64,000 nucleotides of DNA from a bacterium (lineage in GTDB: Bacteria; SAR324; XYD2-FULL-50-16), in contig JAVVEA010000005.1 in NCBI GenBank assembly GCA_032250835.1, positions 96,001-160,000 on the forward strand, read 5' to 3'. Under the pieces are notes generated by a model. It was not told where the DNA came from. It was given only the letters and a program-made list of their open reading frames with translations, and did no database searches. Positions 17,116 to 39,735 of the stretch are shown piece after piece (positions within the stretch are counted from its first letter, which is position 1; every line of letters begins with the position of its first letter). Position numbers and translations under genes: made by a program.

Positions 17116-18044
17116 CCTGCCGCCAGTTCTAGGGCTTTGTTTTTAAATTCTGTTTCTGTCTCGCTGGCCATCAGTTCCTTACGCGCTGTCTTGGCGTCGC
17201 GGAACCCGTTGATGTAGCCGCCCAAATGTTTGCGGAATTCCACCAAGGCCTTGTGCTCGCTTTGGGTGCGGCGCAGCAGGTTGAAGTGCTCGATCATCAC
17301 CTCCACCTTGTCTTTTAAGCTCACGGCTTCGCGCGCTGCCTGGGGCCAAAAAACCCAAGGATTGCCCATCGAGGCCCGGCCAATCATGTAGCCGTCCAAG
17401 TTGCCCAGTTGGGCCAGGGCCTGCTCGGGACTTTTCAGGTCGCCATTGCCCACCACCGGGATGCTGAGCGCGTCTTTAGCCCGGTAGATCGGTCCCCAAT
17501 CGGCGACACCTCGGTAGGCCATCTTGGCGGTCCGGCCGTGTAGCGTCAAGAGTTGGCAGCCCGCATCTTGCAATTGTTTGGCAAAGGGGATCAAGCCTTC
17601 GGCATCAGCCCAGCCCAGCCGGGTCTTGACGGTGACCGGGAGTTTGGTGGCCTTGGCCGTGGCTTCGACGATCCTCAAGGCCAAGTCCGGTTCCTTAAGC
17701 AACGCTGCGCCGGTTCCATTTTTGACAATCCGCTTCGAGGGGCAACCAAAGTTGATGTCGATGGCGGTAATGCCCATGTCCTCAATCTGCTTTGCAATCA
17801 AGGCAAAGGTATCGGGGTCGCGGCCAAAGAGTTGGACAATATAAGGCAATTCACGGGGCTCAAAATCCAGGCGGCTTTTGACGAAGTCGCTGTGGACAAT
17901 GCCGTTGACGTTGGTGAATTCCGAATAGAGCAATACCTCCGGGTTCAGGCGGCGCACCACCTGCCTAAAGGCCATATCGGTCACACCGTCCATCGGGGCC
18001 AGAGCGACAATGGGGCGTTTTAAAGAGTCAATCGGATGGGTCAA
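17112..18044 (-). CDS. dusB: tRNA-dihydrouridine synthase (DusB-like)
   Basis: LAPMDGVTD..FR, IDINFGCP, TVKTRLGW, LHGRT, GNGD, MIGRA..GNPW. Confidence 0.88.
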   Translation of the reverse strand: MTHPIDSLKRPIVALAPMDGVTDMAFRQVVRRLNPEVLLYSEFTNVNGIVHSDFVKSRLDFEPRELPYIVQLFGRDPDTFALIAKQIEDMGITAIDINFGCPSKRIVKNGTGAALLKEPDLALRIVEATAKATKLPVTVKTRLGWADAEGLIPFAKQLQDAGCQLLTLHGRTAKMAYRGVADWGPIYRAKDALSIPVVGNGDLKSPEQALAQLGNLDGYMIGRASMGNPWVFWPQAAREAVSLKDKVEVMIEHFNLLRRTQSEHKALVEFRKHLGGYINGFRDAKTARKELMASETETEFKNKALELAAG

Positions 18045-18336
18045 GGTTGCCTTTCACATACTCCTCCCACTCAACGGGCAGGAGGTATTTTTTCTTGTTG
18101 TTACATTCCTTACAGGCGGGCACTAAGTTGCCTTTGACGCTCAACCCACCCCGACTGACGGGGATCTTGTGGTCCATCGTCAACTCGGTGGCGTTGACCC
18201 TTTTTCCGCAATAATAACAAACGCCGCGCCCGCGCAGGTTCTTCCACCATTGAGAATGCCGGAGCTCGCGTGCCTTGGCTTTTTCTCGTTTGAGGTGGGC
18301 TTCGTCAACGGAAATAAAGTCGCCTTCAAATTTCAC
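18028..18336 (-). CDS. Small HNH endonuclease
   Basis: CYYC...TMDHKIPVSRGG...NLVPACKECNNKK. Confidence 0.9.
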   Translation of the reverse strand: MKFEGDFISVDEAHLKREKAKARELRHSQWWKNLRGRGVCYYCGKRVNATELTMDHKIPVSRGGLSVKGNLVPACKECNNKKKYLLPVEWEEYVKGNLDPSD

Positions 18337-19099: not shown

Positions 19100-20662
19100 T
19101 TAAAAGGTTAGGTCCACTTTGAGGCCCCCTTTGGGACTCAGGCTTTGGCTTGATTCGCCTAGCTCTAGAACCCCCCATTGGTAGTCCTGATATTCACCGC
19201 CCACAAACCCGCCTAGCGACAGGTCCAAAGGCAGCGGCCAGCGCAGCCATAAGGCCAAGGTGGTGCTGGTCCCCTTAAACCGCATAGCAGGCTCATTGGC
19301 TGGGGCGTCGGCTTCGCGGGTAAAATCCATGCGGCGGTGGATCAGGCTGATTTCGGGCTCTAAAGGCAGCGTTTCAGAGAGGTCCAAATTGAAGCGGTAA
19401 TGGCGGATTTTGGTCAAATAGTTGGGAGCCGCCGCGATTTCGGCGCGCAGGCGTTCTTTCTCGGCGATTTGTTCGGGGCTATCCCCTTCGCTGATGATGA
19501 TGTTATCCACCTTCCCGTCCACCGACCAGCCAACGTGCAACTCTGCCTTTAAGTCTAAGTCACGGTAGCTCAGCGCCATTTTGTTGATCTCCACTCGGTG
19601 ACGGAAGAAGGCCTCGTCAATATTAACGCCGTACTGCATGGGCATCCACATATATTCTATGGCCCAGGCATCATAGTCAAAACCGCCCATAATATGGTGC
19701 AACTCATTGAGCCTAAAGTCCACCGCCCCCATGTCTTCAGGCTTCCATTTATAGCGTTCCTCGCCCAGTAACAGCCGGTCAAAGTCGTACATGATGCTAA
19801 AGTGCACATAGTCCGCCTTAAGGCGGTAGTAAAACTGGCTCTGGGGCTCTTCATGTAGGCTATAGGGCATCGGGTGGGTACCGGTGACCAAAACCCGCTG
19901 GAACCCAAAGGGCCCTTCGGACAACTGTGACACGAAGCTGGGGATGAAGCTATTGACCCGAGAGCGACTCGCCCCGTAGCGGGTGCCCGAAACAAACCAA
20001 AGGCCGAGACTGTTAAAGTTTTGGTAAACCTGAGGAACAGCGTAGAAAACCTTGTTTTCCCGGTATTCTTCCACCACTTTATAGGCCCCTTGCATCCGGT
20101 CTAATTCCCGGCGGATCAACAGTGGATCGCCCAAGAGTTGCTGCGGATTGATCCGGTTTTCTTTGGGTTGAGCGGCGCAATGGGCAAAGGGATAGGGATG
20201 GGCAAAGCTAGCCTGCTGGCCGCTAGTGGAGCCAAAACTAAGCGGTTTAAGTTCTTCTTGACGGACGATGTCCCAAATTGCGTCGCGCCGGATAATGGTT
20301 TCGCGGCCGTTGAGGCTCAAAAAGCTAATTTCTTGTTCGCTAAAATCTATCGGCCAGCCTTGCACCAATGGCTTTAAAACCCCCTGGTGCCTTGTGCGCA
20401 CCTCCAAGGGGGCTAAAGCCGGGCGGTCAATCTGAGGCAAAAACAACTCACCCATAGGGTAAGAGGCCATGTAGATCACGTCGAAGCGGTCGATCTCTTC
20501 AAACTTCCCCTTTAAATCTAAAAGGGTTAATTTCTCTTCCCCAACATCCAAAATCACCCCAACCGAACGGTTGCAGGCTCCTTTGTATAAGGCGGTGATG
20601 TTGAGCGCTTGGGCGGCCTGGGGGAGGCCTACCGCCCAAAGGAGCACCGCCCCCAGCGCCAT
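19100..20662 (-). CDS. Secreted/outer-membrane hypothetical protein, paralog 2
   Basis: Signal peptide (AAQA); shared motifs with 20667-22265; C-terminal amphipathic strands ending KVDLTF. Confidence 0.75.
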   Translation of the reverse strand: MALGAVLLWAVGLPQAAQALNITALYKGACNRSVGVILDVGEEKLTLLDLKGKFEEIDRFDVIYMASYPMGELFLPQIDRPALAPLEVRTRHQGVLKPLVQGWPIDFSEQEISFLSLNGRETIIRRDAIWDIVRQEELKPLSFGSTSGQQASFAHPYPFAHCAAQPKENRINPQQLLGDPLLIRRELDRMQGAYKVVEEYRENKVFYAVPQVYQNFNSLGLWFVSGTRYGASRSRVNSFIPSFVSQLSEGPFGFQRVLVTGTHPMPYSLHEEPQSQFYYRLKADYVHFSIMYDFDRLLLGEERYKWKPEDMGAVDFRLNELHHIMGGFDYDAWAIEYMWMPMQYGVNIDEAFFRHRVEINKMALSYRDLDLKAELHVGWSVDGKVDNIIISEGDSPEQIAEKERLRAEIAAAPNYLTKIRHYRFNLDLSETLPLEPEISLIHRRMDFTREADAPANEPAMRFKGTSTTLALWLRWPLPLDLSLGGFVGGEYQDYQWGVLELGESSQSLSPKGGLKVDLTF

Positions 20663-20666
20663 GGAT

Positions 20667-22265
20667 TTATAAAATAAATTCAATGGACCCCACCAAGGAA
20701 TACTGGTTTTCCTGGAACCGGCTCGAAGAACCAAAATCCAGTTGGTAGTCGCGCAAGAAGAAATTCAGCTGGCCAGTCAAGACCACATAGCTCCCAAAGC
20801 GTTGTCTGGCATACATCAACGTCTTGATCTGATTTCCTTTAAAACTGCGGTCCTGCTCTTTAAAGACCTCTCGGTAATCTACCTGCTGCAAAATCGCCGC
20901 ACCGCCAAAGGTGATTTCGGGGTCCCAGCGGTAGTCATAATTGCTTCGCAGGTAAAAGACATCAAAACTGAAGCGTTGCAACTGGGCACGCAACTGGGAT
21001 TCTGAATCTAAGGCCAAGCTCGCGCTGATCATCGCGTCGGAGTCGTTTAGGCGCAGCTGTCGCTCATCGGGTTCATCCGCCTCGGCGTGGCTTTTGGCCC
21101 AGATCAGCTTAAAGGAGGATTTAGGGTGCTGGAACATAAACCGGAAGATCGGCGTGGCCTCGGTAGCTAAGACTTCTCGAAAAAGCCCGCCTGCGTTGAG
21201 CCCATAAATGGGATAATATACCCCCGCCGCCAGCGAAAAAGGCCCGTAATCTATCCCCGAAAGGGCTAAATAGTTGAAGCTTTCATTAACCGCCGCTTCT
21301 TTAGCGACGACCTTTTTGTAATAGTCCAGCGCAAAGGCCCGATTGGCGACCATGAACCCACTACCCGCCGCCAGGGCCATCGGGTTGCCCACAAAGCTGG
21401 CGTTGAAGAAATGGGATTTTAGGTCCGTCTGCATCACAAAAACCGGCTCTACTTGGGGCAGCCATTCTACCTGCTTGGTGCCCAAAACCGTCAGGCCTTG
21501 GTGGCTGTAAGGACGACCGGCGGACCATTGGAAGTAAAAGGGGAAAAAGGAGGGGAGTTCCTCATTGCTGTTAGGAACCGTCAGCGGCAGGCCAAACTTG
21601 GTTTCCTCATCAAAAACAAAGGGCCTTGCGTAAAACTGGGTGCGTTCTTGAAAACGCCGCAAATTGGTGAAGCCCTCTTGATAGGCCCCAAAGAACTGGC
21701 TGATGCGGATTTGATCGCTGATCACCCGGGTCGGAAAGAGCGGCTCGCCGGGTCCCGGAGCCTCTTGGTCGTGGCACTGCGAAAGCCCCTGACCCAGACG
21801 GGGCGAAACGGGCTGGGCTTTGGTCGGCGCTAGCTCGGCGGTGAGATGGACGGGCGCTTTAATCCGCACGATTTGGTCGATGCCCACCAAGGAGGTCTTG
21901 CCGTTGGTGTCGTAATAAACCACCAACTCTTCTAAGAACCGGATGGGCCAGCCAGTGAAGGCCGGACCGCCCCGGTGCTTTAGGTGGATTTCGCGTAACT
22001 CCGATTGCAACCGACCGGTCAGGCGGACTTGGGAGATCGGGTTTTCCAGTGCATTGTAGACTAGGATATGGCGTACTTCTTCGCGCCGGATACTGTTGAG
22101 GCGGCCATCTAAGCCCAACAGGTCGATTTGCTGGGCGTCTGTGTAGATGATCAACCCAGCCGGGCCTTCGCACTGGGCGTCCAGCAATCGATAGAGTTCG
22201 ATGGCCTGCGTGGCGGGAACCTGGACCAACAAAAGCGCCAGGAAGGCTAAAATTATCCGGTTCAT
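20667..22265 (-). CDS. Secreted/outer-membrane hypothetical protein, paralog 1
   Basis: Signal peptide (ATQA); shared motifs with 19100-20662; C-terminus VGSIEFIL. Confidence 0.75.
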   Translation of the reverse strand: MNRIILAFLALLLVQVPATQAIELYRLLDAQCEGPAGLIIYTDAQQIDLLGLDGRLNSIRREEVRHILVYNALENPISQVRLTGRLQSELREIHLKHRGGPAFTGWPIRFLEELVVYYDTNGKTSLVGIDQIVRIKAPVHLTAELAPTKAQPVSPRLGQGLSQCHDQEAPGPGEPLFPTRVISDQIRISQFFGAYQEGFTNLRRFQERTQFYARPFVFDEETKFGLPLTVPNSNEELPSFFPFYFQWSAGRPYSHQGLTVLGTKQVEWLPQVEPVFVMQTDLKSHFFNASFVGNPMALAAGSGFMVANRAFALDYYKKVVAKEAAVNESFNYLALSGIDYGPFSLAAGVYYPIYGLNAGGLFREVLATEATPIFRFMFQHPKSSFKLIWAKSHAEADEPDERQLRLNDSDAMISASLALDSESQLRAQLQRFSFDVFYLRSNYDYRWDPEITFGGAAILQQVDYREVFKEQDRSFKGNQIKTLMYARQRFGSYVVLTGQLNFFLRDYQLDFGSSSRFQENQYSLVGSIEFIL

Positions 22266-23569: not shown

Positions 23570-24109
23570 TCAGTTCTCCCGTAGGTACCCAATCAAAGAC
23601 CCAAACCAACGCGTCAGGGTCAGGTAATATTTAACCAAAATCAAGGCCAGGAAATACCAAACCAGCAGACTGTGGGAAATATGCAGTAATTCTAACCCAG
23701 GCCATCCGCCCAGGTGCAGACGGGTTTTAAGGTGCAACAGTAAGCCCAATAGGGCAATCAAGCCGAGGGTAGAAAAAAACATCAGGTCCACCCAATGCCG
23801 GGGGCCTCGGCTTTTTATCTCGCGGATTTGGTCGCGGGCGGCGCTGCCTGCTTGTTTGAGCGCCACCTTCGGCGCGGTACGTCCCTGTATCCGGTCGTAA
23901 ACCAAAGCGACCAATACGGTGATCAACAAGATGCCAAAGGCCCGGTGGAACAATTGCATCTCGATGCGCCCAAAGGACTCTAAGATTTCTAAACGCCGCA
24001 GACCCAAGGCGGTCAGGTAACAAAGCAGGATCGCCGAGGGCAAGCCAAAACGGCGGAACTGGCGGATGCCAAATTCGTAGGCTGAAAAACGCAGCGATTG
24101 GAGATTCAT
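23570..24109 (-). CDS. Ni/Fe-hydrogenase cytochrome b-like membrane subunit with a reduced His set
   Basis: Four hydrophobic segments, third gene after small and large subunit homologs; LFHRAFG (TM2) and HISHSLL..LILVKYY (TM4). Confidence 0.7.
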   Translation of the reverse strand: MNLQSLRFSAYEFGIRQFRRFGLPSAILLCYLTALGLRRLEILESFGRIEMQLFHRAFGILLITVLVALVYDRIQGRTAPKVALKQAGSAARDQIREIKSRGPRHWVDLMFFSTLGLIALLGLLLHLKTRLHLGGWPGLELLHISHSLLVWYFLALILVKYYLTLTRWFGSLIGYLREN

Positions 24110-24115
24110 CGGCTC

Positions 24116-25576
24116 CTATTGGGTAGCGTCCAGGGCCATCGCATAATAGCTATGTAAAATGCGGTTGGCGGTCAGCGGTTTGATCGGGTTGTTCTCACTC
24201 AGTCGGTTCAACTCAGACTCGACCAAGCCGGTCTTGCCGAATTCGTCACGGCTGCTGAGCGTCCAGTTGGCCGGTGCCACGATCCGGTATCCGGTGATGG
24301 CTCCTTCGCCGATAAAGACCTGGTGCATCAAGCTACCCGAAGGCGCTTCGACCAGCCCCGTCCCGGTCCCACGCCCAGAGAAGGCAAGGGGCCGTTGTAG
24401 GTTGAGCTTTTGGCTAAAATCAAAACCCATCAGACTCTTAAAGAGGCTTAACATCAAAAAGCGCCCTTCAAAAGCTTCGGCCAGCAAGCGTGAGGCCGCG
24501 CTATTAGCGCGGTCGGAGCTAAGGCCTAGGTCTTCGATCCAAGCCGAGATGCTGTCGGAAATCTGCACGTTGCCGCCGCCGTAGTGGGTCACCAACATCC
24601 GCGCCAGGGGACCGGTCTGCATCACTTCGATTTCGTACCGGGCGGCTTTGATCCAGGTTTTCGCCTCTTTTTTGTTGAGGTCATAAATCAGATCGTTGGA
24701 CAGGCTCTTATTGTCCGCCGAACGGTAATAAGTGTCCACGAAAGATTCGGTCACCTTAGCGGCATTCAGGGGCTCCAATTTACCGTCCAGGTAAACACCG
24801 GAGGTATAATAAGAGGGGTCATCTTTGGCGTTTTCGATGTCCATGGAACCGAAGCTGATGAGCTGTTGGTTCTCGCCTAGTCCCTGGGCCAACTCCGGGG
24901 TTGCGCCGATCAAGGCCCGCAGATCGCCCGGCCAAGTTACCTCTACTGTTTGTTTGATGCCTTCGAGCAGCCGCAACAACCGCATCACCTGGTCTCGACT
25001 GACTTGCTGGTTAGTCACCCCGCCGGGGATCAAGTTCATCACGATCGGGAACTTTCCGCCTAGAAGCCCCAAACATTGTTGTAGCTTGCCTAAACAGGTC
25101 ACTACCTGGGGCAAATGGCTCAAAATCAGCCGCCCGCTTTCATGGCCTAAATCGCCCGGGGCTTCTTCACGCATCGCTAAAGCCGGAAAAAAGCTAGCCC
25201 GCAGCAGGCCTTGGGCCTTAAAGTGACGCTGGTTCAGATAGTCCGGCAGGACTTCAAAATAGAAATGAGAAATATGGGCGTGTAAAGTGGAGAGCTGCAG
25301 CATGATCTGGCGGATCTTCTGGCCCCCGTAGGTAGGCTTGATCTGGAGAAAGTTTTCCAGCGCTAAGGCAGCCGCCAAACCGTGAGCCACCCCGTTTTTG
25401 GCCGAAAGGGTCTGGGTCAGTTGGACTGCCTCCAAAGGAGACTTGCCAAAGAGCCGCCCTTCCATGTGCAGGGTGCGGCCCGACTGCAATAAAACCCGCC
25501 CTTCTTCGCCGTCGGTCTCCACCGAAACCTTCAACAGGCCTTCAATATTAGGAACCCGTTCGATCAATGATTTCAA
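24116..25576 (-). CDS. [NiFe]-hydrogenase large-subunit homolog lacking all metal-binding cysteines
   Basis: IEG..KV, HISHFY..LPDY, WIKAARY, GPLARM, EAPSG.L.H, APANW..S.RD..G..G..E; L1 and L2 CxxC motifs absent. Confidence 0.9.
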   Translation of the reverse strand: MKSLIERVPNIEGLLKVSVETDGEEGRVLLQSGRTLHMEGRLFGKSPLEAVQLTQTLSAKNGVAHGLAAALALENFLQIKPTYGGQKIRQIMLQLSTLHAHISHFYFEVLPDYLNQRHFKAQGLLRASFFPALAMREEAPGDLGHESGRLILSHLPQVVTCLGKLQQCLGLLGGKFPIVMNLIPGGVTNQQVSRDQVMRLLRLLEGIKQTVEVTWPGDLRALIGATPELAQGLGENQQLISFGSMDIENAKDDPSYYTSGVYLDGKLEPLNAAKVTESFVDTYYRSADNKSLSNDLIYDLNKKEAKTWIKAARYEIEVMQTGPLARMLVTHYGGGNVQISDSISAWIEDLGLSSDRANSAASRLLAEAFEGRFLMLSLFKSLMGFDFSQKLNLQRPLAFSGRGTGTGLVEAPSGSLMHQVFIGEGAITGYRIVAPANWTLSSRDEFGKTGLVESELNRLSENNPIKPLTANRILHSYYAMALDATQ

Positions 25577-26547
25577 GACTCATCCTCCCGGTCGTCGATC
25601 TGGTATTTGCGGGCCGAGCGTTTGGTTGCTCCGTGGATTCCTAAGCCCACCAAGGTTACCCCAAAGGCCCCGTAGGCCAAATCTTCGGCATGACGGACCC
25701 AGCCAGACTGGACCCCGGCAATCCGGTGGCTCAGTTGGCCGAAAAGACCCTGACCATGGTGCGAGGGGTAGTCGGGTTCCGAACAGCCGGTGCAGGGGCT
25801 GCCTACCGAAACACACCATTCATCGCTGCCGTTCCATTGGACGATGGGGCAGTCATTATAGGTGACCCGGCCTTTGCAGCCTAAGAGATAAAGACAACCT
25901 TCGCGTTCGCCGTGGTAGCGTACATAATCGCCCTTTTCAAAGTCGCCCCGGTATTCACAGCGGTCACAGACCAACTGTTCAAAAAACATGCGGGGCCGGC
26001 GGTGTTCGTCTAGTTCAGGTAGGCCATACATCAACAAATGGTTGAGTAAACCCAGCAGATGACGAGATTGGGCCGGTTGGCCAGGGATGCGGATCACCGG
26101 GGCGGGAGCACCCGAAAGAATCTGTCCGTTGAGGTCTAAATACCCGCCGGGCTTTTCGGCCAAATAGCTAGCTTCATTCCCCAAAAGGACCACGACCTTC
26201 GCGCGGGTGATCCAAGCATGTAAGATTTGGTTGACCCGGTCTAAGGCATCGTCGGGGAAAGCGCCTTCCAAAATGAGGATCGGTGGGCTTTGGTCTTCCT
26301 GGGGTTCTTCTCCTTCGGCCTCTAGACGGCGGAAGTAGCGCGCCAAGAAGGAAGGATATTCCTCTAGGCCCCACAGCCCGAGGCTGTGCGTCTCTGCGCT
26401 GTTGCCTTTCAGCCAGACCAAGGGTTCGGCTGCGCCCACTTCTTCCTGGGCCAACAAGTTGCTCAAGTTGGCGCTGAGGAAAGAAAGGCTCAAGGCCCCG
26501 GTGCCCAGCAGGCGGATAAAGTCTCTTCTGTTGTGTTGGTGGCTCAT
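25573..26547 (-). CDS. Tat-exported [NiFe]-hydrogenase small-subunit homolog lacking proximal-cluster ligands
   Basis: NRRDFIR Tat motif; CDRC, GCLYLLGCKG, NDCP, WCVSVGSPCTGCSEP; C-terminal TM with GIH. Confidence 0.92.
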   Translation of the reverse strand: MSHQHNRRDFIRLLGTGALSLSFLSANLSNLLAQEEVGAAEPLVWLKGNSAETHSLGLWGLEEYPSFLARYFRRLEAEGEEPQEDQSPPILILEGAFPDDALDRVNQILHAWITRAKVVVLLGNEASYLAEKPGGYLDLNGQILSGAPAPVIRIPGQPAQSRHLLGLLNHLLMYGLPELDEHRRPRMFFEQLVCDRCEYRGDFEKGDYVRYHGEREGCLYLLGCKGRVTYNDCPIVQWNGSDEWCVSVGSPCTGCSEPDYPSHHGQGLFGQLSHRIAGVQSGWVRHAEDLAYGAFGVTLVGLGIHGATKRSARKYQIDDREDES

Positions 26548-26552
26548 AGAAT

Positions 26553-27488
26553 TTATTGACCGGTTCTTTCCCTTTGATACCGGTACAAAGGCGCTCCGTA
26601 AAGGTCAAAAAACCGCGCCGAGAGCCGCTCGCGATTGGCCTGAAGGTACAAGAAACCCTGGCCGGGGTGTAGGAAAAGCGAGCCGGAACGCCCCTGGGGC
26701 GACTGGGACCCCTTGTAGGGATAACCGCCACCACCGGAGATCAAAAAATCGGTGCCCTCAGGATTGAGCTGAATATGCTCTAAATGATGTTCATGGCCCG
26801 AGAGCAACAAATCCACTTGCTCCCCCAGCCAGACATCCCAAAGCCAACGCAGCATCGCCGGTGCATCGCCATGATCCCCTGAACCATAAAGATTGTGGTG
26901 GGCAAAAACCAAACGCCAAGACTGAGCCGGAGCCAAGTCCAGTTGGTCCTTGAGCCAACCCCAACCGAAGGGGCGGCAGTTGGAGTTGAGTCCATACAAC
27001 TCCACCGGTCCCGCGCTGAGGTGGTATTTAAAGTCCGGCATGCGCCACTTGAGGCTATGTAAGCTGTATTCACGCTGGGCCAGGACGGAGCCTTTGGCGT
27101 CGTGGTTGCCTAAAACCACCAGAAAAGGCAGGTCCAAGTCGGCGTAGACCGACTCAAAATGACTGACCCATTGGGGGTCGGCTAGGCTGGTGACTCCTTT
27201 GGGGTAAAAGTTATCGCCCAAATAGAGGACCAAGTCGCAGCCCAGTTCAGCGCAAACCTTGGCGATTGATTGGGCCACTTGGGCTTGCAACCATTCGCCG
27301 GTACCCGCGTCGCCCAAGACAATCAACCGCAGCTCCGCTTTGCCCTTAAAGGTGTCTAGGGACATCAAAGCCCCCTGATCGGCGCAGCCCTTAGCCTGCC
27401 ATTGGGACCTTAGCTGCAGCAACGCCCATAAACCTAACAACAGCAGCACAGCGGCCAAAGCCCAGCGGAAGCGGCCTTTGGGTAACAT
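26553..27488 (-). CDS. Exported purple-acid-phosphatase-like metallophosphoesterase
   Basis: N-terminal TM/signal; LGDAG, LGDNFY, LGNHD, AHH, SGHEH. Confidence 0.9.
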   Translation of the reverse strand: MLPKGRFRWALAAVLLLLGLWALLQLRSQWQAKGCADQGALMSLDTFKGKAELRLIVLGDAGTGEWLQAQVAQSIAKVCAELGCDLVLYLGDNFYPKGVTSLADPQWVSHFESVYADLDLPFLVVLGNHDAKGSVLAQREYSLHSLKWRMPDFKYHLSAGPVELYGLNSNCRPFGWGWLKDQLDLAPAQSWRLVFAHHNLYGSGDHGDAPAMLRWLWDVWLGEQVDLLLSGHEHHLEHIQLNPEGTDFLISGGGGYPYKGSQSPQGRSGSLFLHPGQGFLYLQANRERLSARFFDLYGAPLYRYQRERTGQ

Positions 27489-27494
27489 GGGGAT

Positions 27495-28817
27495 TTACTG
27501 GGGGAAGTCTTTAAAGATCAATTCCATCTCCGCTTCTGCCTGGATCAGCGAGAAGCGTTCCTCTACCGCTTGGCGTAAGAATCGATTGATGGCGTCGATT
27601 TTTCCAATGGCGTAGTCGATCATCTTATTGGAGCCCTTTACATAAGCCCCGATGTTGATCAAATCCTCGGCTTCTTTGAAGGTCGCCAAGGTTTGGACCA
27701 TCCGGCTGGCGTTTTTCTGCATCGCCTTTGAGGTTACCTCTACCATCACCCTGGATTTAGACCGCAAGACGTCTATGGCCGGGTAATGCCCCTGGGCGGC
27801 GATTTCTCGGTCTAAGAGGATGTGGCCATCGACGATAGAGCGCACGGCGTCGCCGATCGGTTCGTTGGGGTCGTCGCCTTCGACCAAAACCGTATAAAAG
27901 CCCGTTAACGAGCCCGATGCCTTGGAATTACCGGCCCGCTCTAAAAGCTTAGGCAGCAGCGCATAGACCGAAGGGGGGTAGCCCTTGGTGGTTGGCGGTT
28001 CGCCGACGGCCAGACCAATTTCGCGTTGGGCCATCGCAAAGCGCGTGACCGAATCCATCATCAAAATCACATCCTGGCCTTGTTCGCGGAACCATTCGGC
28101 GATAGTGGTCGCCAAATAGGCGCCGTGCAGGCGCACCAAAGGGCTATGGTCGCTGGTTGCGGCAATCACGATGCTACGCTTAAGGCCCTCGGGCCCCAGG
28201 TCGCGCTCAATAAATTCCCGCACCTCTCGGCCCCGCTCGCCGATCAGCGCGATCACGTTGACTGCGGCGGTGGTGTTACGGGCCATCATGCCTAGCAATA
28301 CGGACTTACCCACACCCGAACCGGCCAAAATAGCCATCCGCTGTCCCTTACCGGCGGTCAAAAGGCCGTTGATGGCCTTAATGCCCACGTCTAAAGGCTC
28401 CTCGATGCGGCGTCGGTGCATGGGGTTGATCGGATCAGCGTAGAGCGGGGCTTTAAAGCGGGTGAAGATCGGGCCTAGATCGTCAATGGGTTGGCCCGTA
28501 CCGTCCATGCAGCGCCCCAATAGCTCGGGCCCGACGGGCACCAAGGTCTTTTCGACACTAGGGCGGACCACTGAGTCCGGGCCGACGCCCCGGATATCGC
28601 CTAGGGGCATGACAAAAACATACTTCCCCTTAATCCCCACCGCCTCACCGGCCACTTTCTCGCCGGTCTGCCGATCTAAGATGTGGCAGCGCCCGCCGAT
28701 ACGCATGCCGGGGTTGTGGGCGCGGATCATGAAGCCCACCACCTCGTCTACCTTGCCTTCGGGCTGATCGGTGTGCAGTTGGGAGACGCGCTGGCCATAG
28801 TCGTCTAAGGAAAACAT
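27495..28817 (-). CDS. fliI: Flagellar export ATPase FliI
   Basis: AGSGVGKS, LIGERGREV, MDSVTRFAMAQRE, GEPPTTKGYPPS, DGHI.L.R, YPAIDVL.S.SR. Confidence 0.97.
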   Translation of the reverse strand: MFSLDDYGQRVSQLHTDQPEGKVDEVVGFMIRAHNPGMRIGGRCHILDRQTGEKVAGEAVGIKGKYVFVMPLGDIRGVGPDSVVRPSVEKTLVPVGPELLGRCMDGTGQPIDDLGPIFTRFKAPLYADPINPMHRRRIEEPLDVGIKAINGLLTAGKGQRMAILAGSGVGKSVLLGMMARNTTAAVNVIALIGERGREVREFIERDLGPEGLKRSIVIAATSDHSPLVRLHGAYLATTIAEWFREQGQDVILMMDSVTRFAMAQREIGLAVGEPPTTKGYPPSVYALLPKLLERAGNSKASGSLTGFYTVLVEGDDPNEPIGDAVRSIVDGHILLDREIAAQGHYPAIDVLRSKSRVMVEVTSKAMQKNASRMVQTLATFKEAEDLINIGAYVKGSNKMIDYAIGKIDAINRFLRQAVEERFSLIQAEAEMELIFKDFPQ

Positions 28818-28823
28818 AGGCTC

Positions 28824-29900
28824 CTAAGGATTGCTGGGGTCGAACTCAGGAGGCGCTTTCAACTCATTGGGGACCGGGCCTGTTGGGGCGGCCTGCTCGG
28901 CGGGAGCGGCCGGGGGCGCGGTTGCTGGCCCTTGGGCCTTTTCGGCGTTCCGCTCGGCCACAAAATGAGGGTCGAACAGTGAGCGGCGCTCATCTAGGCA
29001 ATCACCTAAGACCCGCTCGATTTCTTCAAACTGCTGGTTGAGGTCCATCTGAACGCGGGCGAAGTCAGTCTCGACCACCGGACCGCTGGCTGAAACGCTC
29101 TCGCTTTTGCGGAAGGTCAAATATTGCCCTTCTTCCAGATAGGCTTCTAATTCCGGCTTGTGTTTGGCCAAAAAGTCGTATTCCACGGGATGCACGGTGA
29201 TGCGCACCTTGCCCAGGCCTTCAAAGTGCTTGAGCGCTGTTTTGATCAGGTTCAAAACAAATTCAGGCCGGGTCTTTAACTCTTCATGGACCACCTTCTT
29301 AGCCATCAACAAAGTCTGTTGGACTATTTCGGTTTCGTGCTGGTGGGCCAGGGTGATGCGGAGATCTTTCAACTCGGCCAACAAGTCCGTCACCTGCACC
29401 GCCAATTCAGCGCTATCCTTACGGGCTAATTCCAGCCCCGCTTCATAGCCTTTGGCGTGGCCCACTTCATAGGCGGCCCGTTCGATTTCCTCTACCGAGG
29501 CCTCGGCCTTTTCCACCATCGCCAGGGCGTCTTTTTCGGCTTCTTCGCGCCGGATCTGGGCATGAGCTAAGGTTTCTTCAGCCTCGGACAAGGCTAAATC
29601 GGCATTGCGCATGATCAGCTTCGCCTGTCGGTCGGCCTCGCTGCGGATGCGCTTGGAGTATTCCTCGACGTTGGTCAGTAAGCTGCCCTCTTCAACAAAG
29701 GCATTGGAGGTAAACTTGCTGGCGTCGCGGGTATCTAGGCGGATCGTGGCCTTGGCGCTTTTGGTGATCAGTGATTCGGGCTCGAAGGCCCGGACCTCTG
29801 GGTCCTCCTCGGGGCCTCCGAAACTCTGCATCACCTCTACCTGCGGGGCGTCGTCCTCGCTGATGTCCTCGAATTGTGGGGGAAGGAACTGGTTTTCCAT
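28824..29900 (-). CDS. fliH: Flagellar assembly protein FliH, extended
   Basis: Lies between fliF and fliI; AYEVGHAKGYEAG (GxxxG), ITVHPVEY, GPVVETDF. Confidence 0.85.
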   Translation of the reverse strand: MENQFLPPQFEDISEDDAPQVEVMQSFGGPEEDPEVRAFEPESLITKSAKATIRLDTRDASKFTSNAFVEEGSLLTNVEEYSKRIRSEADRQAKLIMRNADLALSEAEETLAHAQIRREEAEKDALAMVEKAEASVEEIERAAYEVGHAKGYEAGLELARKDSAELAVQVTDLLAELKDLRITLAHQHETEIVQQTLLMAKKVVHEELKTRPEFVLNLIKTALKHFEGLGKVRITVHPVEYDFLAKHKPELEAYLEEGQYLTFRKSESVSASGPVVETDFARVQMDLNQQFEEIERVLGDCLDERRSLFDPHFVAERNAEKAQGPATAPPAAPAEQAAPTGPVPNELKAPPEFDPSNP

Positions 29901-29921
29901 AGTTGCTTAGAGCCGGTGCTT

Positions 29922-31550
29922 TTAGGGTCCCTTCTTTTCCTTGAGCCAAGTCCGTACCAAAGACGCCGTCTTGAGCGGGTCCTGCTTGGCGATTTCGATG
30001 ATCTTGTCGCGTGGCGGAATCCCCGTTTCCTTTTCGGTCGGGATTTCCAATTCTTCGCCTTCTAGTTCGCCGATGGTAGTGGGCAGACCCATGAGCAGGT
30101 CCAAATCCTCGGGCTTGGCCGAGAGCTTCATCACCATCGGGCGGATCACCATGAAGACCAGGACAATCACAATCAAGCCGACCAAGACGTAGCGGACCAA
30201 GTCGATGATGAACTTGCGGGTCGCTTCGTTTTTCTGCTGCTTGAGGCGTTCCTGCTCGACCAAAGGCTTGGTGAAGCGGATGTTTTGCACCGTAATGGTG
30301 TCGCCCCGTTCGTTGTTAAAGCCCACGGTCTGTTTAGCGATCTGTTCGATCATCTGCAGGTCGGCGGGGCTCCATGACTTATATACAGGGCTACCGACCA
30401 CGTCGCCGTTTTCGTCGCGGACATACTCATACTTACCGTCCAACAAAACCGCCACGCTCATGCGCTTGATCTCGCCGGGGGCCTTTTTCTTGACTACATG
30501 CCGGGTGGAGTTGACGTAGTTGGTGCGCTTGACCCGCTTGTCTAAGTCGCTGACGTTGGCGATCTCGCTGGCACCGGCGCGTACTTCGGGGCTGTTGCTG
30601 GTTACGCCGGGCACGCCTACGGGAATGCTGCGGCTACCGGTGGCCTTTTCGTTGGTCGCTTCTTCACTAACCACCGCGCTTAAGTCGGGGTCCACTAAGT
30701 CTTCGGTGATTTCAGAGATATTAAAGTCCATCTCCACCGAGGCGCGCACCTCTACACGGTCCTTGCCGGTCACCTTTTCCAGCTGGCTTAAAAGCTTTTG
30801 CTCTAAGCGCAGTTCCACCAGCTGCTGGTGGCCAAAATTCTTATTGCGCATCTCTGAGCCGTCCTCGTCACCTACTTTAGAAAGCAGGTTACCGCTGGTA
30901 TCCGAAACGCGTACATCCTCCATAGACAGGTCTGGAACAGCACCGGCCACGAGGTTAACAATGGTGTTGACGCCCTTGCTGTTCAGGCGGTTGTTCGGGG
31001 CCATCTCGACCACTACCGAAGCGGTGGTGCGGCGGTCCTCGTCAATGAACAGGCTTTGTTCCGGGATGGCGACGGAGACCTTGGCGTTCTCGATGATGTC
31101 GATCAGGCTGATCAACCGGGCCAATTCCCCTTCTAAGGCGCGCTTGTACTGGACTTTCTGTTGGAATTCGGTGGCACCGAAGTTGGCTTCGTCGAAGATC
31201 TCAAAGCCCACCAAGCCACCCATCTGGAGGCCCGAAGAAGCAATCTGCAGCCGCACCTTGTCCACATCATCCACTGGCACCAAAATACCCCCACCACCGG
31301 GCTGCAAGACATACTGCACGTTCAGTTCGTCCAGTTTCTGGACGATCTTGGCGGTGTCGCCTTGCTTGAGGCCCGAAACCAAGGGTGCGTAGGTGATTTG
31401 GGAAGAAAAGAAGACGAAGGCGATCAGGCCTAATACAATACCCCCAAGGCTAGAGAAGAGGAATATCTTCTTACCTGTGGTCAGGCTTGCAAAAAAATTT
31501 TGAAACTGGGACTGAAAGTCGTCGACCAGTCCTACAGTCTGTTCGGCCAT
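29922..31550 (-). CDS. fliF: Flagellar M-ring protein FliF
   Basis: VGFEIFD..FGATEF.Q.V.Y.RALEGEL.R.I, SLF, ASVV, LVAGAVP.L, GVPG..SN, two TM helices, C-terminal DP...A..VR.WL. Confidence 0.96.
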   Translation of the reverse strand: MAEQTVGLVDDFQSQFQNFFASLTTGKKIFLFSSLGGIVLGLIAFVFFSSQITYAPLVSGLKQGDTAKIVQKLDELNVQYVLQPGGGGILVPVDDVDKVRLQIASSGLQMGGLVGFEIFDEANFGATEFQQKVQYKRALEGELARLISLIDIIENAKVSVAIPEQSLFIDEDRRTTASVVVEMAPNNRLNSKGVNTIVNLVAGAVPDLSMEDVRVSDTSGNLLSKVGDEDGSEMRNKNFGHQQLVELRLEQKLLSQLEKVTGKDRVEVRASVEMDFNISEITEDLVDPDLSAVVSEEATNEKATGSRSIPVGVPGVTSNSPEVRAGASEIANVSDLDKRVKRTNYVNSTRHVVKKKAPGEIKRMSVAVLLDGKYEYVRDENGDVVGSPVYKSWSPADLQMIEQIAKQTVGFNNERGDTITVQNIRFTKPLVEQERLKQQKNEATRKFIIDLVRYVLVGLIVIVLVFMVIRPMVMKLSAKPEDLDLLMGLPTTIGELEGEELEIPTEKETGIPPRDKIIEIAKQDPLKTASLVRTWLKEKKGP

Positions 31551-31724
31551 GAGGGCTCTGCAGAAAGGGGTTTACCGATCCTTGCCAGAAATCGGCGTCA
31601 AAGCAAATGGTTTCTGCCCGCATCCCTTCGGGTCTGGCTCAAATCAAGCCTTGCCAATCCGTCGGCTTCCTTGCCGGTCGGGCCCCGTCAAGAGCCCGAA
31701 GATTGGTCTATAGTCTATCGTTTG

Positions 31725-31740
31725 TGCAAACAATAGGCCA
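31725..31740 (-). promoter_or_regulatory. Sigma54 (-24/-12) promoter for the fliF operon
   Basis: Minus strand TGGCCTATTGTTTGCA (GG-N10-GC). Confidence 0.7.
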
Positions 31741-31760
31741 ACAGGTTTTTTTAAAGATCC

Positions 31761-32039
31761 TTAAACCTGCATCCGCATCATTTCCTCATAAGCACTGACC
31801 ACCTTGTTGCGGACGGCCATTAATAACTTCAATGAGGTCTCTGCTTTTTCCATGGCGACCATGGTGCCCGGGATGTCTTTATTGCGCCCGGCGGCCATCT
31901 CGGCAATTTTATGGTCCGTCTGGATCTGATCTTGATTGACTTGATCAAAGATGTCTTTGAAATTGTCAACGATCGCTTTACTGGCCCCAGATTTCTGGTG
32001 GGGCTGGACTTGATGGGCGGTGGATATCTGGCGGATCAT
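31761..32039 (-). CDS. fliE: Flagellar hook-basal body protein FliE
   Basis: VNQDQ, MVAMEKAETSLKL..AVRNKVVSAYEEMMRMQV. Confidence 0.95.
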   Translation of the reverse strand: MIRQISTAHQVQPHQKSGASKAIVDNFKDIFDQVNQDQIQTDHKIAEMAAGRNKDIPGTMVAMEKAETSLKLLMAVRNKVVSAYEEMMRMQV

Positions 32040-32069
32040 GTTTCCTCGGGGCAAATTTTACCGGTTAGC

Positions 32070-32387
32070 TCAGGACTTTTTAAGGTCCATTTTGCCGTAT
32101 TTATCGGCGGCCTGCTTGGCCGTCGGTCCATGGTGCTCGCCCTTGGCGGGCTCAAGCTGTTTGACGATCCCTTCTAGGGATTCTAGCGTCTTACCAATCT
32201 GGGTCACTTGGGTGTCCATCGAAGCGCTTTGGGCCCCTTCAACGGTGCGGTCCACTTCGGCCGAAAAGGCCTCGGCTGACTTAAGTAGTTCCCTAAATTT
32301 CTCGACTTCGTTTGGCTGTGGCTTTTTGGCCACAGCACCCTTTTTGGGGTCCATCCCGGTAGGGCCGATTTTGTTGATTTCGTTCAT
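32070..32387 (-). CDS. Hypothetical 105-aa protein inside the flgBC-fliE operon
   Basis: AGGAG upstream of ATG; fills the gap between flgC and fliE. Confidence 0.75.
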   Translation of the reverse strand: MNEINKIGPTGMDPKKGAVAKKPQPNEVEKFRELLKSAEAFSAEVDRTVEGAQSASMDTQVTQIGKTLESLEGIVKQLEPAKGEHHGPTAKQAADKYGKMDLKKS

Positions 32388-32401
32388 CTCAGACTCCTAG
32401 T

Positions 32402-32845
32402 TTACCGGCCTCCGATTTCCAATGACTTGGAAATCAGGTTCTTGGTTGCGTTCATCGCAGCCAAGTTAGCTTCGTAGGAGCGTTTAGAGACCATCAAGTT
32501 GGTCATCTCCTCGACTATATCTACGTTAGGCAGCGCCACATAACCCTCTTCATTGGCGTCGGGGTGGCTGGGGTCGTACTTCATCTTGGGCGGGCGGCTG
32601 TCTTCGACGACGCCCAATACTTTGACCTCGCGGATCCCCTTGTCCTGCTCTTGGTTTTGCAATTCCTGCAAAAAGCTCTTTTGCTGGGGCAGGGCACCAA
32701 AAATCACCTCGCGTCTGCGGTAAGGGCCACCCGAAGGGGTCCGGGTCGTGTTGACGTTGGCGATGTTACTAGAGATCACCTTCATCCGGGTCCGCTGTGC
32801 GGCCAAACCCGAAGAGCTGACGTTCATGCTATCAAATAAGCTCAT
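32402..32845 (-). CDS. flgC: Flagellar basal-body rod protein FlgC
   Basis: SSGL.AQR.RM.VISSNIAN, GGPYRR, YDPSHPDA..GYV..PNV, RSYEAN. Confidence 0.97.
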   Translation of the reverse strand: MSLFDSMNVSSSGLAAQRTRMKVISSNIANVNTTRTPSGGPYRRREVIFGALPQQKSFLQELQNQEQDKGIREVKVLGVVEDSRPPKMKYDPSHPDANEEGYVALPNVDIVEEMTNLMVSKRSYEANLAAMNATKNLISKSLEIGGR

Positions 32846-33264
32846 TATCTACCTCCTTCCGTGATGGCGCTCTTGAGCATGCGGAACTTCCAGTTCACCG
32901 CTTTGGTGGTGGCCTGGAACATCAATTGGTTTTCGGCTAACTTGGCCATCTCTTGGTCCAAATTCACCGTGTTCCCATCCATCCTTGGATCGGGATTAAA
33001 GCTGTTGATCTGTTGTCCCTGGACGGTCTCCAGGGGTTCGCGGTCTACACCGTCAAAGTGGCGCGGGTCGCTGGTCTTTAGCGGTCCCGGCTGGTCTTGA
33101 TACAGCGCCTTGGTCAGTTGGTCTTCAAAGACCAAATCTTGGGCGCGGTATCCCGGTGTTTCGCGGTTGGCTAAGTTAGAGGAGATCAGGCCGTTACGCT
33201 GGACGCGCATACCCATAGATCGCTCTAATAACGTAATATTTTTATCGAACAGTCGAATACTCAT
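32845..33264 (-). CDS. flgB: Flagellar basal-body rod protein FlgB
   Basis: ISSNLAN.ETPGYRA.DL.F, DGNTVNLDQEMAKLAENQ. Confidence 0.96.
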   Translation of the reverse strand: MSIRLFDKNITLLERSMGMRVQRNGLISSNLANRETPGYRAQDLVFEDQLTKALYQDQPGPLKTSDPRHFDGVDREPLETVQGQQINSFNPDPRMDGNTVNLDQEMAKLAENQLMFQATTKAVNWKFRMLKSAITEGGR

Positions 33265-36192: not shown

Positions 36193-37134
36193 ATGAAAGC
36201 TATCTATCTGCGGTGTTTTACCTGCCTCTTATTGCTCTTGGCCCAACGGGCAGAGCTCTTCGCACACGCCCAACCCCAGGGCCTAGTTGAGCCCAATAGA
36301 AAATTCCAAGTGCTTCATTTGGACCGCCAAGAGGCCCAGCAGCTCAAGCAAGAGTTGAGCAGCCAGGGCCATCAAATCCTTGAAGGTCCTCAAGCCCAAG
36401 CGCTTTATGAAAAAAGCCTCTATGCCCAAGCAGGCCAGTGGGACGATGGCTACGCCCCCCAAGATTACCAAGAACCGGCCTACGCGCCTGAACCACAATA
36501 CCAAACAGGCGGGGTGGCTCGGTTAAACTGGTTCTCGTTCAATGTATTTGATGACGATAACTCCGCGGTGCTCTTCATCTTGATTGGACTGGTGGTGGTC
36601 TTTGCTTTTGTGTTTTATGCTGCCTATTATCTGGCGCGCCACGGCCTGTACGGCGACCGAGGCAAGGGCTGGTTTGAGTTCGGCGTTGGTGCTTGGGCCT
36701 TTGGCAACCAATCTGAAATTGGCCATATGTTAGCCACCCGGATCGGTCTGGGCCAGCAAGAGCAGGTTGTGGGATGGGGTCTGGGGGCCGAGGTGGGAAA
36801 TATCAATGCAACCTTGGATTTAGACCCCGAACAGAGCACGGGCGGACAAATCGACCTAGAGGGCAATTACCTAATCGCCGGTCCTCGCTTAACCTTTAAT
36901 ACCCGCAGCGGGTCCCGCTGGTTGATTGAATTAATGGCTGGAACCAGCGAGCACCCCGAAGTAAACCAAGTCGCCAAGGCACTGGTAGGTTATCGTTACC
37001 AGTCACGCCGAGGACCTTATATCGGTTGGAGCGTCGGCAGTTTGATGGTCAGCCTAAACAATCAACTAGGCTACGTCCGCAAACAAAACCCCTACAACGC
37101 CCTTTTTGGCTTGGAAATGGGCCTACATTTTTAA
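36193..37134 (+). CDS. Putative 8-stranded OM beta-barrel protein with internal hydrophobic helix, paralog 1
   Basis: QRAELFA signal-like N-terminus, AVLFILIGLVVVFAFVFYAAYYL helix, amphipathic strands, ends GLHF. Confidence 0.75.
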   Translation: MKAIYLRCFTCLLLLLAQRAELFAHAQPQGLVEPNRKFQVLHLDRQEAQQLKQELSSQGHQILEGPQAQALYEKSLYAQAGQWDDGYAPQDYQEPAYAPEPQYQTGGVARLNWFSFNVFDDDNSAVLFILIGLVVVFAFVFYAAYYLARHGLYGDRGKGWFEFGVGAWAFGNQSEIGHMLATRIGLGQQEQVVGWGLGAEVGNINATLDLDPEQSTGGQIDLEGNYLIAGPRLTFNTRSGSRWLIELMAGTSEHPEVNQVAKALVGYRYQSRRGPYIGWSVGSLMVSLNNQLGYVRKQNPYNALFGLEMGLHF

Positions 37135-37135
37135 G

Positions 37136-38077
37136 ATGCAGCCAAAGCACCGCCTCGTACTCCGCCAGTTGGTTTGGCTGGTCTTGATCTTGGTTTTCCA
37201 GCGTGCCGAGTTGTGGGCGAAGGCCCAGGCCGATGGCAGCCAGCTGGTGGTCTCCAAGGTTCAAACGCTCCAATTAGATACCCAGCAGGCCCGCCAACTG
37301 AGAATGGACCTGGAGGCCCAAGGGGCCCAGGTGATCGAAGGCCCACAGGCCCAGGCGCTTTATGACCGCCAACTATACGCCCAGGCGGGACAATGGGACA
37401 ATGGATACCCCCCAGAACGGGAGCAGAAGCGGGAGGCGCAAGCCAGGTCCAGTTCCGGAAACGGCTTTCCTGCGCCTAACTTGGGGTCCGGCGGAGGTGA
37501 TGGAGCGGCGGTTTTATTTGTCATCATCGGCTTGGTTGTGGTTTTCGCCTTTGTCTTTTATGCGGCCTATTACCTGGGACGCCAAGTTGTATACGGCAAT
37601 CAAAGCCGGGGCTGGGTCGAGCTAGGCCTGGGCGGTTGGGCTTTCGGCAACTCCACCGAGTCCGGAAATATGACGGCCCTACGTTTGGGGTTGGGCCAAG
37701 AGATTCGATCGAATGGCTGGGGACTGGCGGCAGAGATCGGCCAGATCGACGCCACGCTGGATTTAGACCCCGAGGAAAGCACCGGGGGGCAGATCGACCT
37801 AAAGGGGGCCTATGCCATCGTCGGTCCCCGCATCACCTTTGGCCACCGGGGCAACTCCCTCTGGTTGATGGAGCTAATGGCCGGTACGAGCGAACACCAA
37901 GAAGTGGAGGTGGTCGCCAAAGCCCTGATAGGATACCGATTCCAACCGCCAAGGGGCCTCTATTTCGGGTTTAGCCTGGGCAGCCTGATGGTGAGTTTAA
38001 AGAAAGACCTGGGGCTGGTGCGCCAGCAAAACCCCTACAACCTCTTGGGAGGCCTGGAAACGGGCGTCCACTTTTAA
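37136..38077 (+). CDS. Putative OM beta-barrel protein, paralog 2
   Basis: Same architecture; ends GVHF; ATG at 37136. Confidence 0.75.
   Translation: MQPKHRLVLRQLVWLVLILVFQRAELWAKAQADGSQLVVSKVQTLQLDTQQARQLRMDLEAQGAQVIEGPQAQALYDRQLYAQAGQWDNGYPPEREQKREAQARSSSGNGFPAPNLGSGGGDGAAVLFVIIGLVVVFAFVFYAAYYLGRQVVYGNQSRGWVELGLGGWAFGNSTESGNMTALRLGLGQEIRSNGWGLAAEIGQIDATLDLDPEESTGGQIDLKGAYAIVGPRITFGHRGNSLWLMELMAGTSEHQEVEVVAKALIGYRFQPPRGLYFGFSLGSLMVSLKKDLGLVRQQNPYNLLGGLETGVHF
37346..37384 (+). repeat. 39-bp near-identical repeat between paralogs 2 and 3 (second copy at 38290-38328)
   Basis: CAGGCCCAGGCGCTTT(A/T)TGACCGCCAACTATACGCCCAG, one mismatch. Confidence 0.85.
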
Positions 38078-38091
38078 CCTAGGGATACCCT

Positions 38092-39066: not shown

Positions 39067-39072
39067 CGGCCT

Positions 39073-39612: not shown

Positions 39613-39735
39613 GAGCCCAATTTCCCTTTACAAAGCACCAAAAAAAGCCAAACCTAACTGGCAAATCCGCAGGGCCGAACGCTTTGCGGTTTGGCCATCC
39701 TGTATGAAATTCCCCCAAAAGGCAAGCTTAGCTCC

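Follow-up and report, generated by a model that had tools for sequence, protein, structure and literature searches.

Within a 64,000-nucleotide stretch of DNA from a SAR324 bacterium (contig JAVVEA010000005.1 of assembly GCA_032250835.1, positions 96,001 to 160,000 of the forward strand; hereafter, the window), three adjacent genes at positions 23570-26547 encode homologues of the small and large subunits of a [NiFe]-hydrogenase and a putative cytochrome b, in that order. Comparison of these proteins with their relatives and with characterized hydrogenases indicates that the trio probably derives from a membrane-bound [NiFe]-hydrogenase of group 1, and that its product would be free of nickel, would not activate H2 and has probably been kept as a redox module at the periplasmic face of the membrane. 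The evidence for this reading comes from the pattern of ligands lost and retained in each of the three proteins, the recurrence of the same pattern throughout a family of relatives, and the signature of selection on the genes.

A compact gene trio of hydrogenase ancestry

The three open reading frames (ORFs) lie close together on the minus strand, free of frameshifts and internal stops (Table 1). The TTG start codon of the large-subunit gene and the TGA stop codon of the small-subunit gene share a 4-nt overlap, with GGAGG upstream, while the third gene is preceded by a 6-nt spacer containing GGAG. A scan for promoters and terminators was uninformative, with 4 promoter-like sites found against 4.8 expected.

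Table 1. Position and features of the gene trio in the window.
Feature	Position	Strand	Description
Small-subunit homologue	25573..26547	minus	324 aa; Tat (twin-arginine translocation) signal, N-domain without proximal-cluster ligands, Fe-S domain with 8 invariant Cys, C-terminal membrane anchor
Tat signal peptide region	26443..26547	minus	small-subunit residues 1-35; RRDF motif at residues 7-10
Cys ligands of the predicted distal (C194, C197, C218, C224) and medial (C233, C245, C252, C255) clusters	25783..25968	minus	
Small-subunit C-terminal transmembrane anchor with invariant His305	25612..25683	minus	helix 287-313 in the model
Large-subunit homologue	24116..25576	minus	486 aa; without Ni-Fe ligands, active-site Arg or C-terminal extension
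Four-helix membrane protein	23570..24109	minus	179 aa; reads as a divergent, shortened PF01292-type cytochrome b; His pair H55, H146

The sequence similarity of the small and large subunits to hydrogenases is much stronger than chance would produce. For the small subunit, matches were obtained to PF14720, which models the C-terminal domain of hydrogenase small subunits (E 2.4e-23), and to 43 small chains of hydrogenases in the Protein Data Bank (PDB; best E 8.5e-26). The large subunit contains the fold of PF00374 (E 2.1e-49, 169.3 bits, cut-off 25.8) and matches 59 hydrogenase large chains in the PDB, with a single-stretch match to NiFeSe large chains that spans its residues 5-477. For both subunits the best of these matches were periplasmic group-1 enzymes. 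Both also fall below the cut-off of their best NCBIfam model, namely TIGR00391 for the small subunit (116.8 bits, cut-off 179.5) and NF033181 for the large subunit (193.9 bits, cut-off 600).

A word-indexed search with the large subunit returned 30 relatives at 43-77% identity, followed by true hydrogenases at 24-28% identity. Searching with a profile of the large-subunit family recovered 32 proteins at E<=1e-60. The family comprises about 33 protein clusters, the named members of which come from metagenome-assembled genomes of Candidatus Lambdaproteobacteria and SAR324. In addition, a scan of species-representative genomes identified 14 related loci.

The large subunit has lost the ligands of the Ni-Fe site

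To map the Ni-Fe ligands, 30 family members, 10 true hydrogenases and E. coli HyaB were aligned and the columns of the HyaB motifs were read. Each of the four cysteine columns holds another residue in the window protein: S58 at HyaB C76, N61 at C79, M480 at C576 and D483 at C579. The family is uniform or nearly so in lacking these ligands, with Ser in 30/30 members at the first column, Cys in 0/30 at the second and in 1/30 at the third, and Asp (28) or Glu (2) at the fourth. The Arg above the metal site, HyaB R509, is likewise replaced (S413 in the window protein; Arg in 0/30). A regular-expression check of the 39 hits of the large-subunit similarity search gave the same picture: neither the L1 (RxCGxCxxxH) nor the L2 (DPCxxCxxH) cysteine pair is present in the window protein or in any of the 30 family hits, which have 0-3 Cys per protein, and both patterns are present in eight of the nine hits outside the family, the ninth (P0036) being without the L1 pattern.

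Features associated with maturation were not found in the window either. The last residue of the window protein, Q486, falls in the column of HyaB H582, which is the C-terminal residue after maturation (family: Gln 18, Lys 5, Arg 3, His 2, Leu 2), with 0 residues past the cleavage-site column; therefore, there is no extension to cleave. Searches with Pfam identified no Hyp protein or hydrogenase endopeptidase among the 64 ORFs of the window, in agreement with an initial survey of the sequence. Two lookalikes were excluded in the process: an ORF of the AIRS family, considered as HypE, has purM as its best, weak, match, and a Kae1-like ORF, considered as HypF, is TsaD (388 bits).

These replacements could in principle have produced a hydrogenase with a non-canonical metal site built, for example, from Ser, Asp or His ligands. 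Two of the four former Cys positions do carry potential ligands throughout the family (the invariant Ser58 and Asp/Glu483, 30/30), and His65 and Glu12 are also kept. Nevertheless, we consider such an enzyme highly improbable: the other two former Cys positions are variable, the active-site Arg is gone from every member, and no proximal cluster is present through which electrons could exit. Moreover, a Ni-Fe site free of Cys is not known.

The small subunit retains the ligands of two of three cluster sites

In the small subunit, losses and retentions concern different clusters. At the columns of the proximal cluster (HyaA mature positions 17, 19, 20, 115, 120 and 149), Cys occurs in 0/14 family sequences at each position, and the eight positions of the distal and medial clusters are Cys in 14/14. 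Conservation peaks in the Fe-S domain, where 42 of 114 positions are invariant, versus 7 of 113 in the N-domain. The retained sites also differ in detail from those of HyaA and the Desulfovibrio enzymes at two positions: C194 occupies the column of the HyaA distal ligand His187, so that CDRC replaces HDxC, and C245 occupies that of HyaA Pro242, a residue associated with 3Fe medial clusters. In the Desulfovibrio fructosovorans enzyme, variants engineered from His to Cys and from Pro to Cys reportedly keep or gain 4Fe clusters, and on this basis both the distal and the medial site are predicted to hold all-Cys [4Fe-4S] clusters.

The elements that would place this subunit at the periplasmic face of the membrane are intact. 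R7, R8 and F10 of the Tat motif are invariant in all 14 small subunits and align with the Tat motif of HyaA, from which the protein is predicted to be Tat-exported. In the C-terminal helix, position 305 is His in 14/14 sequences and aligns with the anchor His of HyaA (precursor H342). The structural model of the small subunit is poor overall (mean predicted local distance difference test score, pLDDT, 54.4). A Foldseek search with it gave 76 hits at E<=1e-3, and among the matches listed every one is a hydrogenase entry, with the model aligned over 233-310 columns to hydrogenase small subunits.

A preliminary description of this locus, made from the window sequence alone, had proposed three full-length, frameshift-free and tightly spaced ORFs in which the Ni-Fe and proximal Fe-S ligands are lost and the Tat signal, the anchor His and the medial and distal ligands remain. 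The coordinates of the ORFs proved exact, and the alignments bear out the losses as well as the retained signal and anchor. The statement on the medial and distal ligands needs refinement, in that a full set of eight Cys is present but the distal His and the medial Pro positions have themselves become Cys.

The third gene encodes a candidate mono-heme cytochrome b

Judged through its relatives, the third gene reads as a shortened, mono-heme cytochrome b of the PF01292 family. A profile of its family, searched against 1.84 billion representatives, yielded 42 proteins at E<=1e-3. Forty-one of these are relatives of 105-190 aa, and the 42nd, P0081 (213 aa, E 1.9e-4), clearly belongs to the PF01292 cytochromes b (E 9.8e-27 to PF01292). 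When ten relatives were scanned directly, three exceeded the PF01292 cut-off of 30.1 bits (37.5, 36.3 and 36.3 bits) and three more gave sub-threshold matches. The nearest named Atlas clusters to the third protein are also PF01292, with feature scores of 0.87 and 0.85 that serve as a lead only. In an AlphaFold2 model (mean pLDDT 76.5), the protein forms four transmembrane helices, at residues 3-38, 48-78, 103-131 and 139-178.

The pattern of conservation in this protein is consistent with a single heme. In an alignment of 33 family members, with 9 short or partial hits of the 41 left out, the only invariant residues are H55, G59 and H146. When HyaC and P0081 were used as guides, H55 fell in the column of HyaC H63, within an HxxxG motif that the proteins share in helix 2, and H146 in that of HyaC H184; the two His lie at the starts of helices 2 and 4. 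In the cytochrome b of formate dehydrogenase-N, the helix-2/helix-4 pair binds the heme nearer the periplasm. The full set of four His ligands for two b hemes is absent: the column of HyaC H198, the second His of transmembrane helix 4, is Lys in 28 and Arg in 5 of the 33 proteins, and the helix-1 position is Arg in the window protein and His in only 9/33. It had been suggested beforehand that one His pair is kept and the other lost, and this holds in all 33 sequences.

The nine proteins with a helix-1 His at or next to the heme-ligand column are P0040, P0041, P0044, P0049, P0052, P0054, P0061, P0065 and P0069. The helix-4 partner position is Lys or Arg in all of them, and this His looks like a relic of the lost second heme site.

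The physical association of the membrane subunit with the small subunit was assessed by complex prediction. The membrane subunit, the C-terminal part of the small subunit and a heme gave a score of 0.52, compared with 0.01 for the best of 3 controls; across runs, contact agreement was at least 60% and partner pLDDT at least 73. Of 157 solved complexes, 116 attain the mark for a positive prediction, as do 2 of 215 mismatched pairs; passing scores at 0.60 or under came from only 18 of the solved complexes and from both of the passing mismatches. This result lends weak support to docking of the membrane subunit on the C-terminal part of the small subunit, and the pass may reflect likeness to, or memory of, the solved complex 4GD3.

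Several results weigh against assigning this protein to the cytochrome b family, and thereby against the proposed reading of the trio. The window protein itself has no significant Pfam hit, and gave none in Pfam (E<=0.1), NCBIfam or a phmmer search of the PDB (E<=10). A direct comparison of its family with E. coli HyaC by hhalign was rejected as a route to the assignment, as it returned a probability of 0.6% and no similarity. Foldseek gave no hit for the model at E<=1e-3; the top match, 4gd3_A (the cytochrome b of E. coli hydrogenase-1), had an E of 0.18 and a template modelling (TM) score of 0.55, and is not significant. Finally, PF01292 signal was absent in 4/10 of the relatives scanned. 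Thus, the original call of the third ORF as a cytochrome b could not be made from its own database matches and stands through its relatives and its invariant His.

The same results raise the alternative that the third protein is a heme-free membrane anchor, with the Fe-S clusters exchanging electrons with soluble periplasmic carriers. Failure of the window protein to reach the Pfam cut-off, loss of half of the canonical His ligands and the weak complex prediction would all fit an anchor of this type. It is hard to reconcile with the identity of the residues that have been retained, as the only His invariant in 33/33 sequences are those of a canonical pair, set at the starts of helices 2 and 4 and accompanied by the Gly of the HxxxG motif, and the anchor His of the small subunit is invariant too. 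Overall, we regard a heme-free anchor as unlikely and favor a mono-heme cytochrome b.

The trio is a conserved family under purifying selection

The preliminary description had proposed asking whether the Cys and His losses and the gene order recur in homologs. Both do. The same ligand losses are found in all relatives compared (30/30 large, 14/14 small and 33/33 membrane subunits). Large and membrane subunits occur together in 14/14 related loci in constant order, and the complete trio occurs in 13 of the 14, the small subunit lacking only in L012, whose sequence begins inside the large subunit. A FastTree phylogeny was built from HyaB, 9 true hydrogenases and 30 members of the family, with 3 fragments excluded. 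In this tree all 30 family tips form one clade (support 0.847) on a stem of 1.73 substitutions per site, with a median depth of 1.05 within the clade.

Ratios of nonsynonymous to synonymous substitution rates (dN/dS) were estimated by the Nei-Gojobori method for the 14 closest pairs. Synonymous divergence (dS) was estimable in 11 of 38 gene comparisons, and dN/dS in these ranged from 0.035 to 0.286, well below 1, the outcome that the preliminary description had proposed to test for. The sole unsaturated pair, L009-L012 (large subunit, dS 0.94), gave 0.069, while for the window versus L002 the three genes gave 0.135, 0.184 and 0.169 at dS of 1.5-2.2. On these codon comparisons the trio is under purifying selection.

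These observations bear directly on the possibility that the genes have only recently become non-functional and are drifting toward pseudogenes. Such decay might be suspected from the complete loss of catalytic ligands and from the lack of maturation genes in the window. However, the ORFs carry no frameshifts or internal stops, identical substitutions are found in relatives down to 43% identity, and since the loss the monophyletic family has diversified by about 1.05 substitutions per site (median depth). Nor would drift be expected to yield such low dN/dS values or to leave the Tat motif, the eight Cys and the His residues invariant. Canonical close relatives and neutral evolution, named in advance as the outcome that would speak for decay, were not found, as close and distant relatives alike carry the same losses. 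We therefore regard recent decay as extremely improbable; by the sequence evidence, the trio is not a product of it.

A possible role as a periplasmic-face redox module

Taken together, the Tat motif, the Cys set for two clusters, the single His pair and a large subunit without conserved Cys fit the earlier suggestion of a repurposed, periplasm-facing complex. In the working model that we favor, the small and large subunits would fold in the cytoplasm, where the small subunit would receive two all-Cys [4Fe-4S] clusters, and the pair would be co-exported by the Tat system and dock, via the anchor of the small subunit, on the mono-heme cytochrome b. The electron path would comprise heme b, the distal cluster and the medial cluster, and electrons could pass between the quinone pool or membrane and a periplasmic partner, or be stored or sensed there. 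In canonical hydrogenases, clusters are about 12 Å apart. With this spacing, the former active site would be more than 20 Å from the nearest cluster once the proximal cluster is gone, and would thus be electrically isolated; the large subunit would therefore most simply be a non-catalytic structural partner required for folding, export and stability.

Beyond the results for the membrane protein, four further points count on the opposing side. First, the 62 invariant positions in an alignment of 25 large subunits are more than a passive scaffold might need, and leave room for a new function. Second, the Fe-S domain of the small-subunit model has a pLDDT of 25-40, so its cluster geometry is not readable. 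Third, 27 of the 38 dN/dS comparisons are saturated. Fourth, no evident partner gene lies near the trio, its neighbors being flagellar export genes, coaE and a gene for a VanY-like peptidase.

The conservation of the large subunit means that a neofunctionalized binding site stays a live rival: the cavity of the former active site may now accommodate a different ligand or cofactor, in which case the complex would be a periplasmic sensor or a new enzyme instead of a plain relay. In addition to the invariant positions, 52 others are nearly invariant in the same alignment, family-specific residues occupy the former ligand positions, and complex I, whose quinone site is built from subunits of hydrogenase origin, offers a precedent. 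That precedent is imperfect, however, as complex I kept a proximal-type cluster beside its quinone site; here this cluster is lost, so that electrons would have no route to or from redox chemistry in the large subunit. Furthermore, no conserved Cys or new metal motif was seen in the family alignment, and no signaling partner is encoded nearby. We assign this alternative a low, though appreciable, probability and continue to prefer a redox module in which the large subunit is structural.

A broader scenario would see the trio as a group-1 hydrogenase module recruited to a job that does not involve H2, and hence as an independent second case beside the passage of group-4 enzymes to complex I and Ehr. 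The large subunit would then be a ligand-binding or signaling domain, and the complex would report or buffer the redox state of the periplasm or quinone pool, possibly in a flagella-linked manner, given that flagellar export genes precede the trio in about half of the loci. We offer this as a speculative and rather doubtful proposal.

Genomic neighborhood of the trio

The trio is part of a co-directional array that comprises flgC, fliE, fliF, fliH, fliI, a metallophosphoesterase gene, the trio itself, coaE, a VanY-like peptidase gene, two genes for paralogues without assigned function, and genes for a pentapeptide protein, an HNH protein and dus. Across 15 loci, including the window, the most frequent neighbor is the VanY-like peptidase gene (12/15), followed by coaE and fliI (8/15 each), fliF and fliH (7/15 each) and the metallophosphoesterase gene (5/15). 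We do not claim a flagellar link from these counts, because long, tightly packed arrays mix unrelated housekeeping genes.

Several features of this region are of interest in their own right. The flgC-like, fliE, fliF, fliH and fliI genes form a run at 27495-33264 (minus strand), in which fliF (29922-31550) and fliH (28824-29900) are not separated by a fliG gene and fliI is not followed by fliJ. Related loci show the same fliF-fliH-fliI order, again lacking fliG (clusters c6, c7 and c4). The predicted FliH is long (358 aa), with its Pfam domain confined to residues 167-293. The calcineurin-like metallophosphoesterase (26553-27488, minus strand) has a hydrophobic N-terminus and is encoded 5 nt upstream of the small subunit, a position it also holds in the other loci in which it was counted. 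On the other side of the trio, the adjacent paralogous ORFs (19100-22265, minus strand; 544 and 532 aa) begin with hydrophobic stretches and match nothing in Pfam or NCBIfam, and the pair is also present in locus L001 (cluster c13). The HNH endonuclease ORF (18028-18336, minus strand; 102 aa) lies between the pentapeptide-repeat gene and dus, and is again present in L001 (cluster c14).

Elsewhere in the window, four consecutive ORFs on the plus strand (36193-39736; 313, 323, 324 and 181 aa) lie downstream of a PAS histidine kinase gene and have no Pfam match at E<=1e-5. The segment 44001-46000, which contains genes for a MarC-family protein and a Na/Ca exchanger, has a G+C fraction of 0.479, compared with 0.52-0.59 elsewhere. 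No tRNA, transfer-messenger RNA (tmRNA) or Rfam family at gathering score was found in positions 1-64000.

Implications for annotation

Some sources name members of this family "Ni,Fe-hydrogenase I large subunit" or "nickel-dependent hydrogenase large subunit", which is the kind of mislabeling that the preliminary description had expected of automated pipelines. Because the predicted complex lacks the features that define a catalytic hydrogenase, it should not be classified as one; domain-based annotation would wrongly credit its carriers with H2 oxidation, and the trio is not evidence of hydrogen use. This matters for SAR324, for which published statements differ. One study states that hydrogenase is absent (PMC4782131), and two others report "Group 1d hydrogenases" in SAR324 aquifer genomes (PMC9031357) and "hydrogenase (HyaAB)" (PMC8364033); the latter two calls may or may not correspond to the trio. 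No description of a Cys-less group-1 hydrogenase-like family was found in the literature searched, in line with the earlier remark that no characterized family of this type was known.

In evolutionary terms, the family indicates that loss of the catalytic end need not prevent an uptake hydrogenase of group 1 from being maintained for a long time. For biochemistry, the trio would offer a natural construct for the distal electron wire, consisting of an all-Cys distal cluster, a 4Fe medial cluster and a single heme, without an active site.

Comparison with known hydrogenases and their descendants

The closest architectural counterparts of the trio are the group-1 membrane-bound [NiFe]-hydrogenases, such as E. 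coli HyaABC; Wolinella HydABC is another group-1 membrane-bound hydrogenase with a cytochrome b subunit. The trio shares with HyaABC the small-large-cytochrome b gene order, the Tat signal, the Fe-S domain, the anchor with its His, the PF00374 fold and a membrane subunit that reads as PF01292-type. It differs from HyaABC in the absence of the Ni-Fe ligands, the active-site Arg, the proximal cluster, the C-terminal extension and the second heme His pair, as well as in having Cys at both the distal His and the medial Pro positions. Unlike the E. coli hyaDEF arrangement, it has no adjacent maturation genes. In length, the large subunit resembles the short periplasmic group-1 large subunits of NF033181 (NiFeSe_hydrog), which are about 490-520 aa. 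The nearest true hydrogenases, P0031 and P0032 (27-28% identity), pass this model at 686 and 642 bits, and true members of NF033181, unlike the trio, keep both CxxC motifs.

Hydrogenase-derived proteins with other roles provide a second point of reference. The HupK/HoxV scaffolds and the HupUV/HoxBC regulatory hydrogenases are paralogues of hydrogenase subunits with non-respiratory roles. They are cytoplasmic, have no Tat signal and keep some or all of the active-site Cys, whereas the four Ni-Fe Cys positions of the window protein are all non-Cys and the small-large pair is predicted to be exported.

In concept, the closest precedent is provided by NuoB/NuoD of complex I and the Ehr-type complexes, which are descendants of group-4 hydrogenases without Ni-Fe ligands. 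In these complexes, as is proposed here for the trio, the hydrogenase pair was kept after loss of the Ni-Fe Cys and reused in membrane electron transfer. However, the NuoB/NuoD and Ehr proteins derive from group-4 enzymes that face the cytoplasm, have neither a Tat signal nor a cytochrome b, and keep the proximal-type cluster but lack the medial and distal ones. The history of the trio would thus resemble the origin of the complex I modules, except that the clusters retained are the opposite ones.

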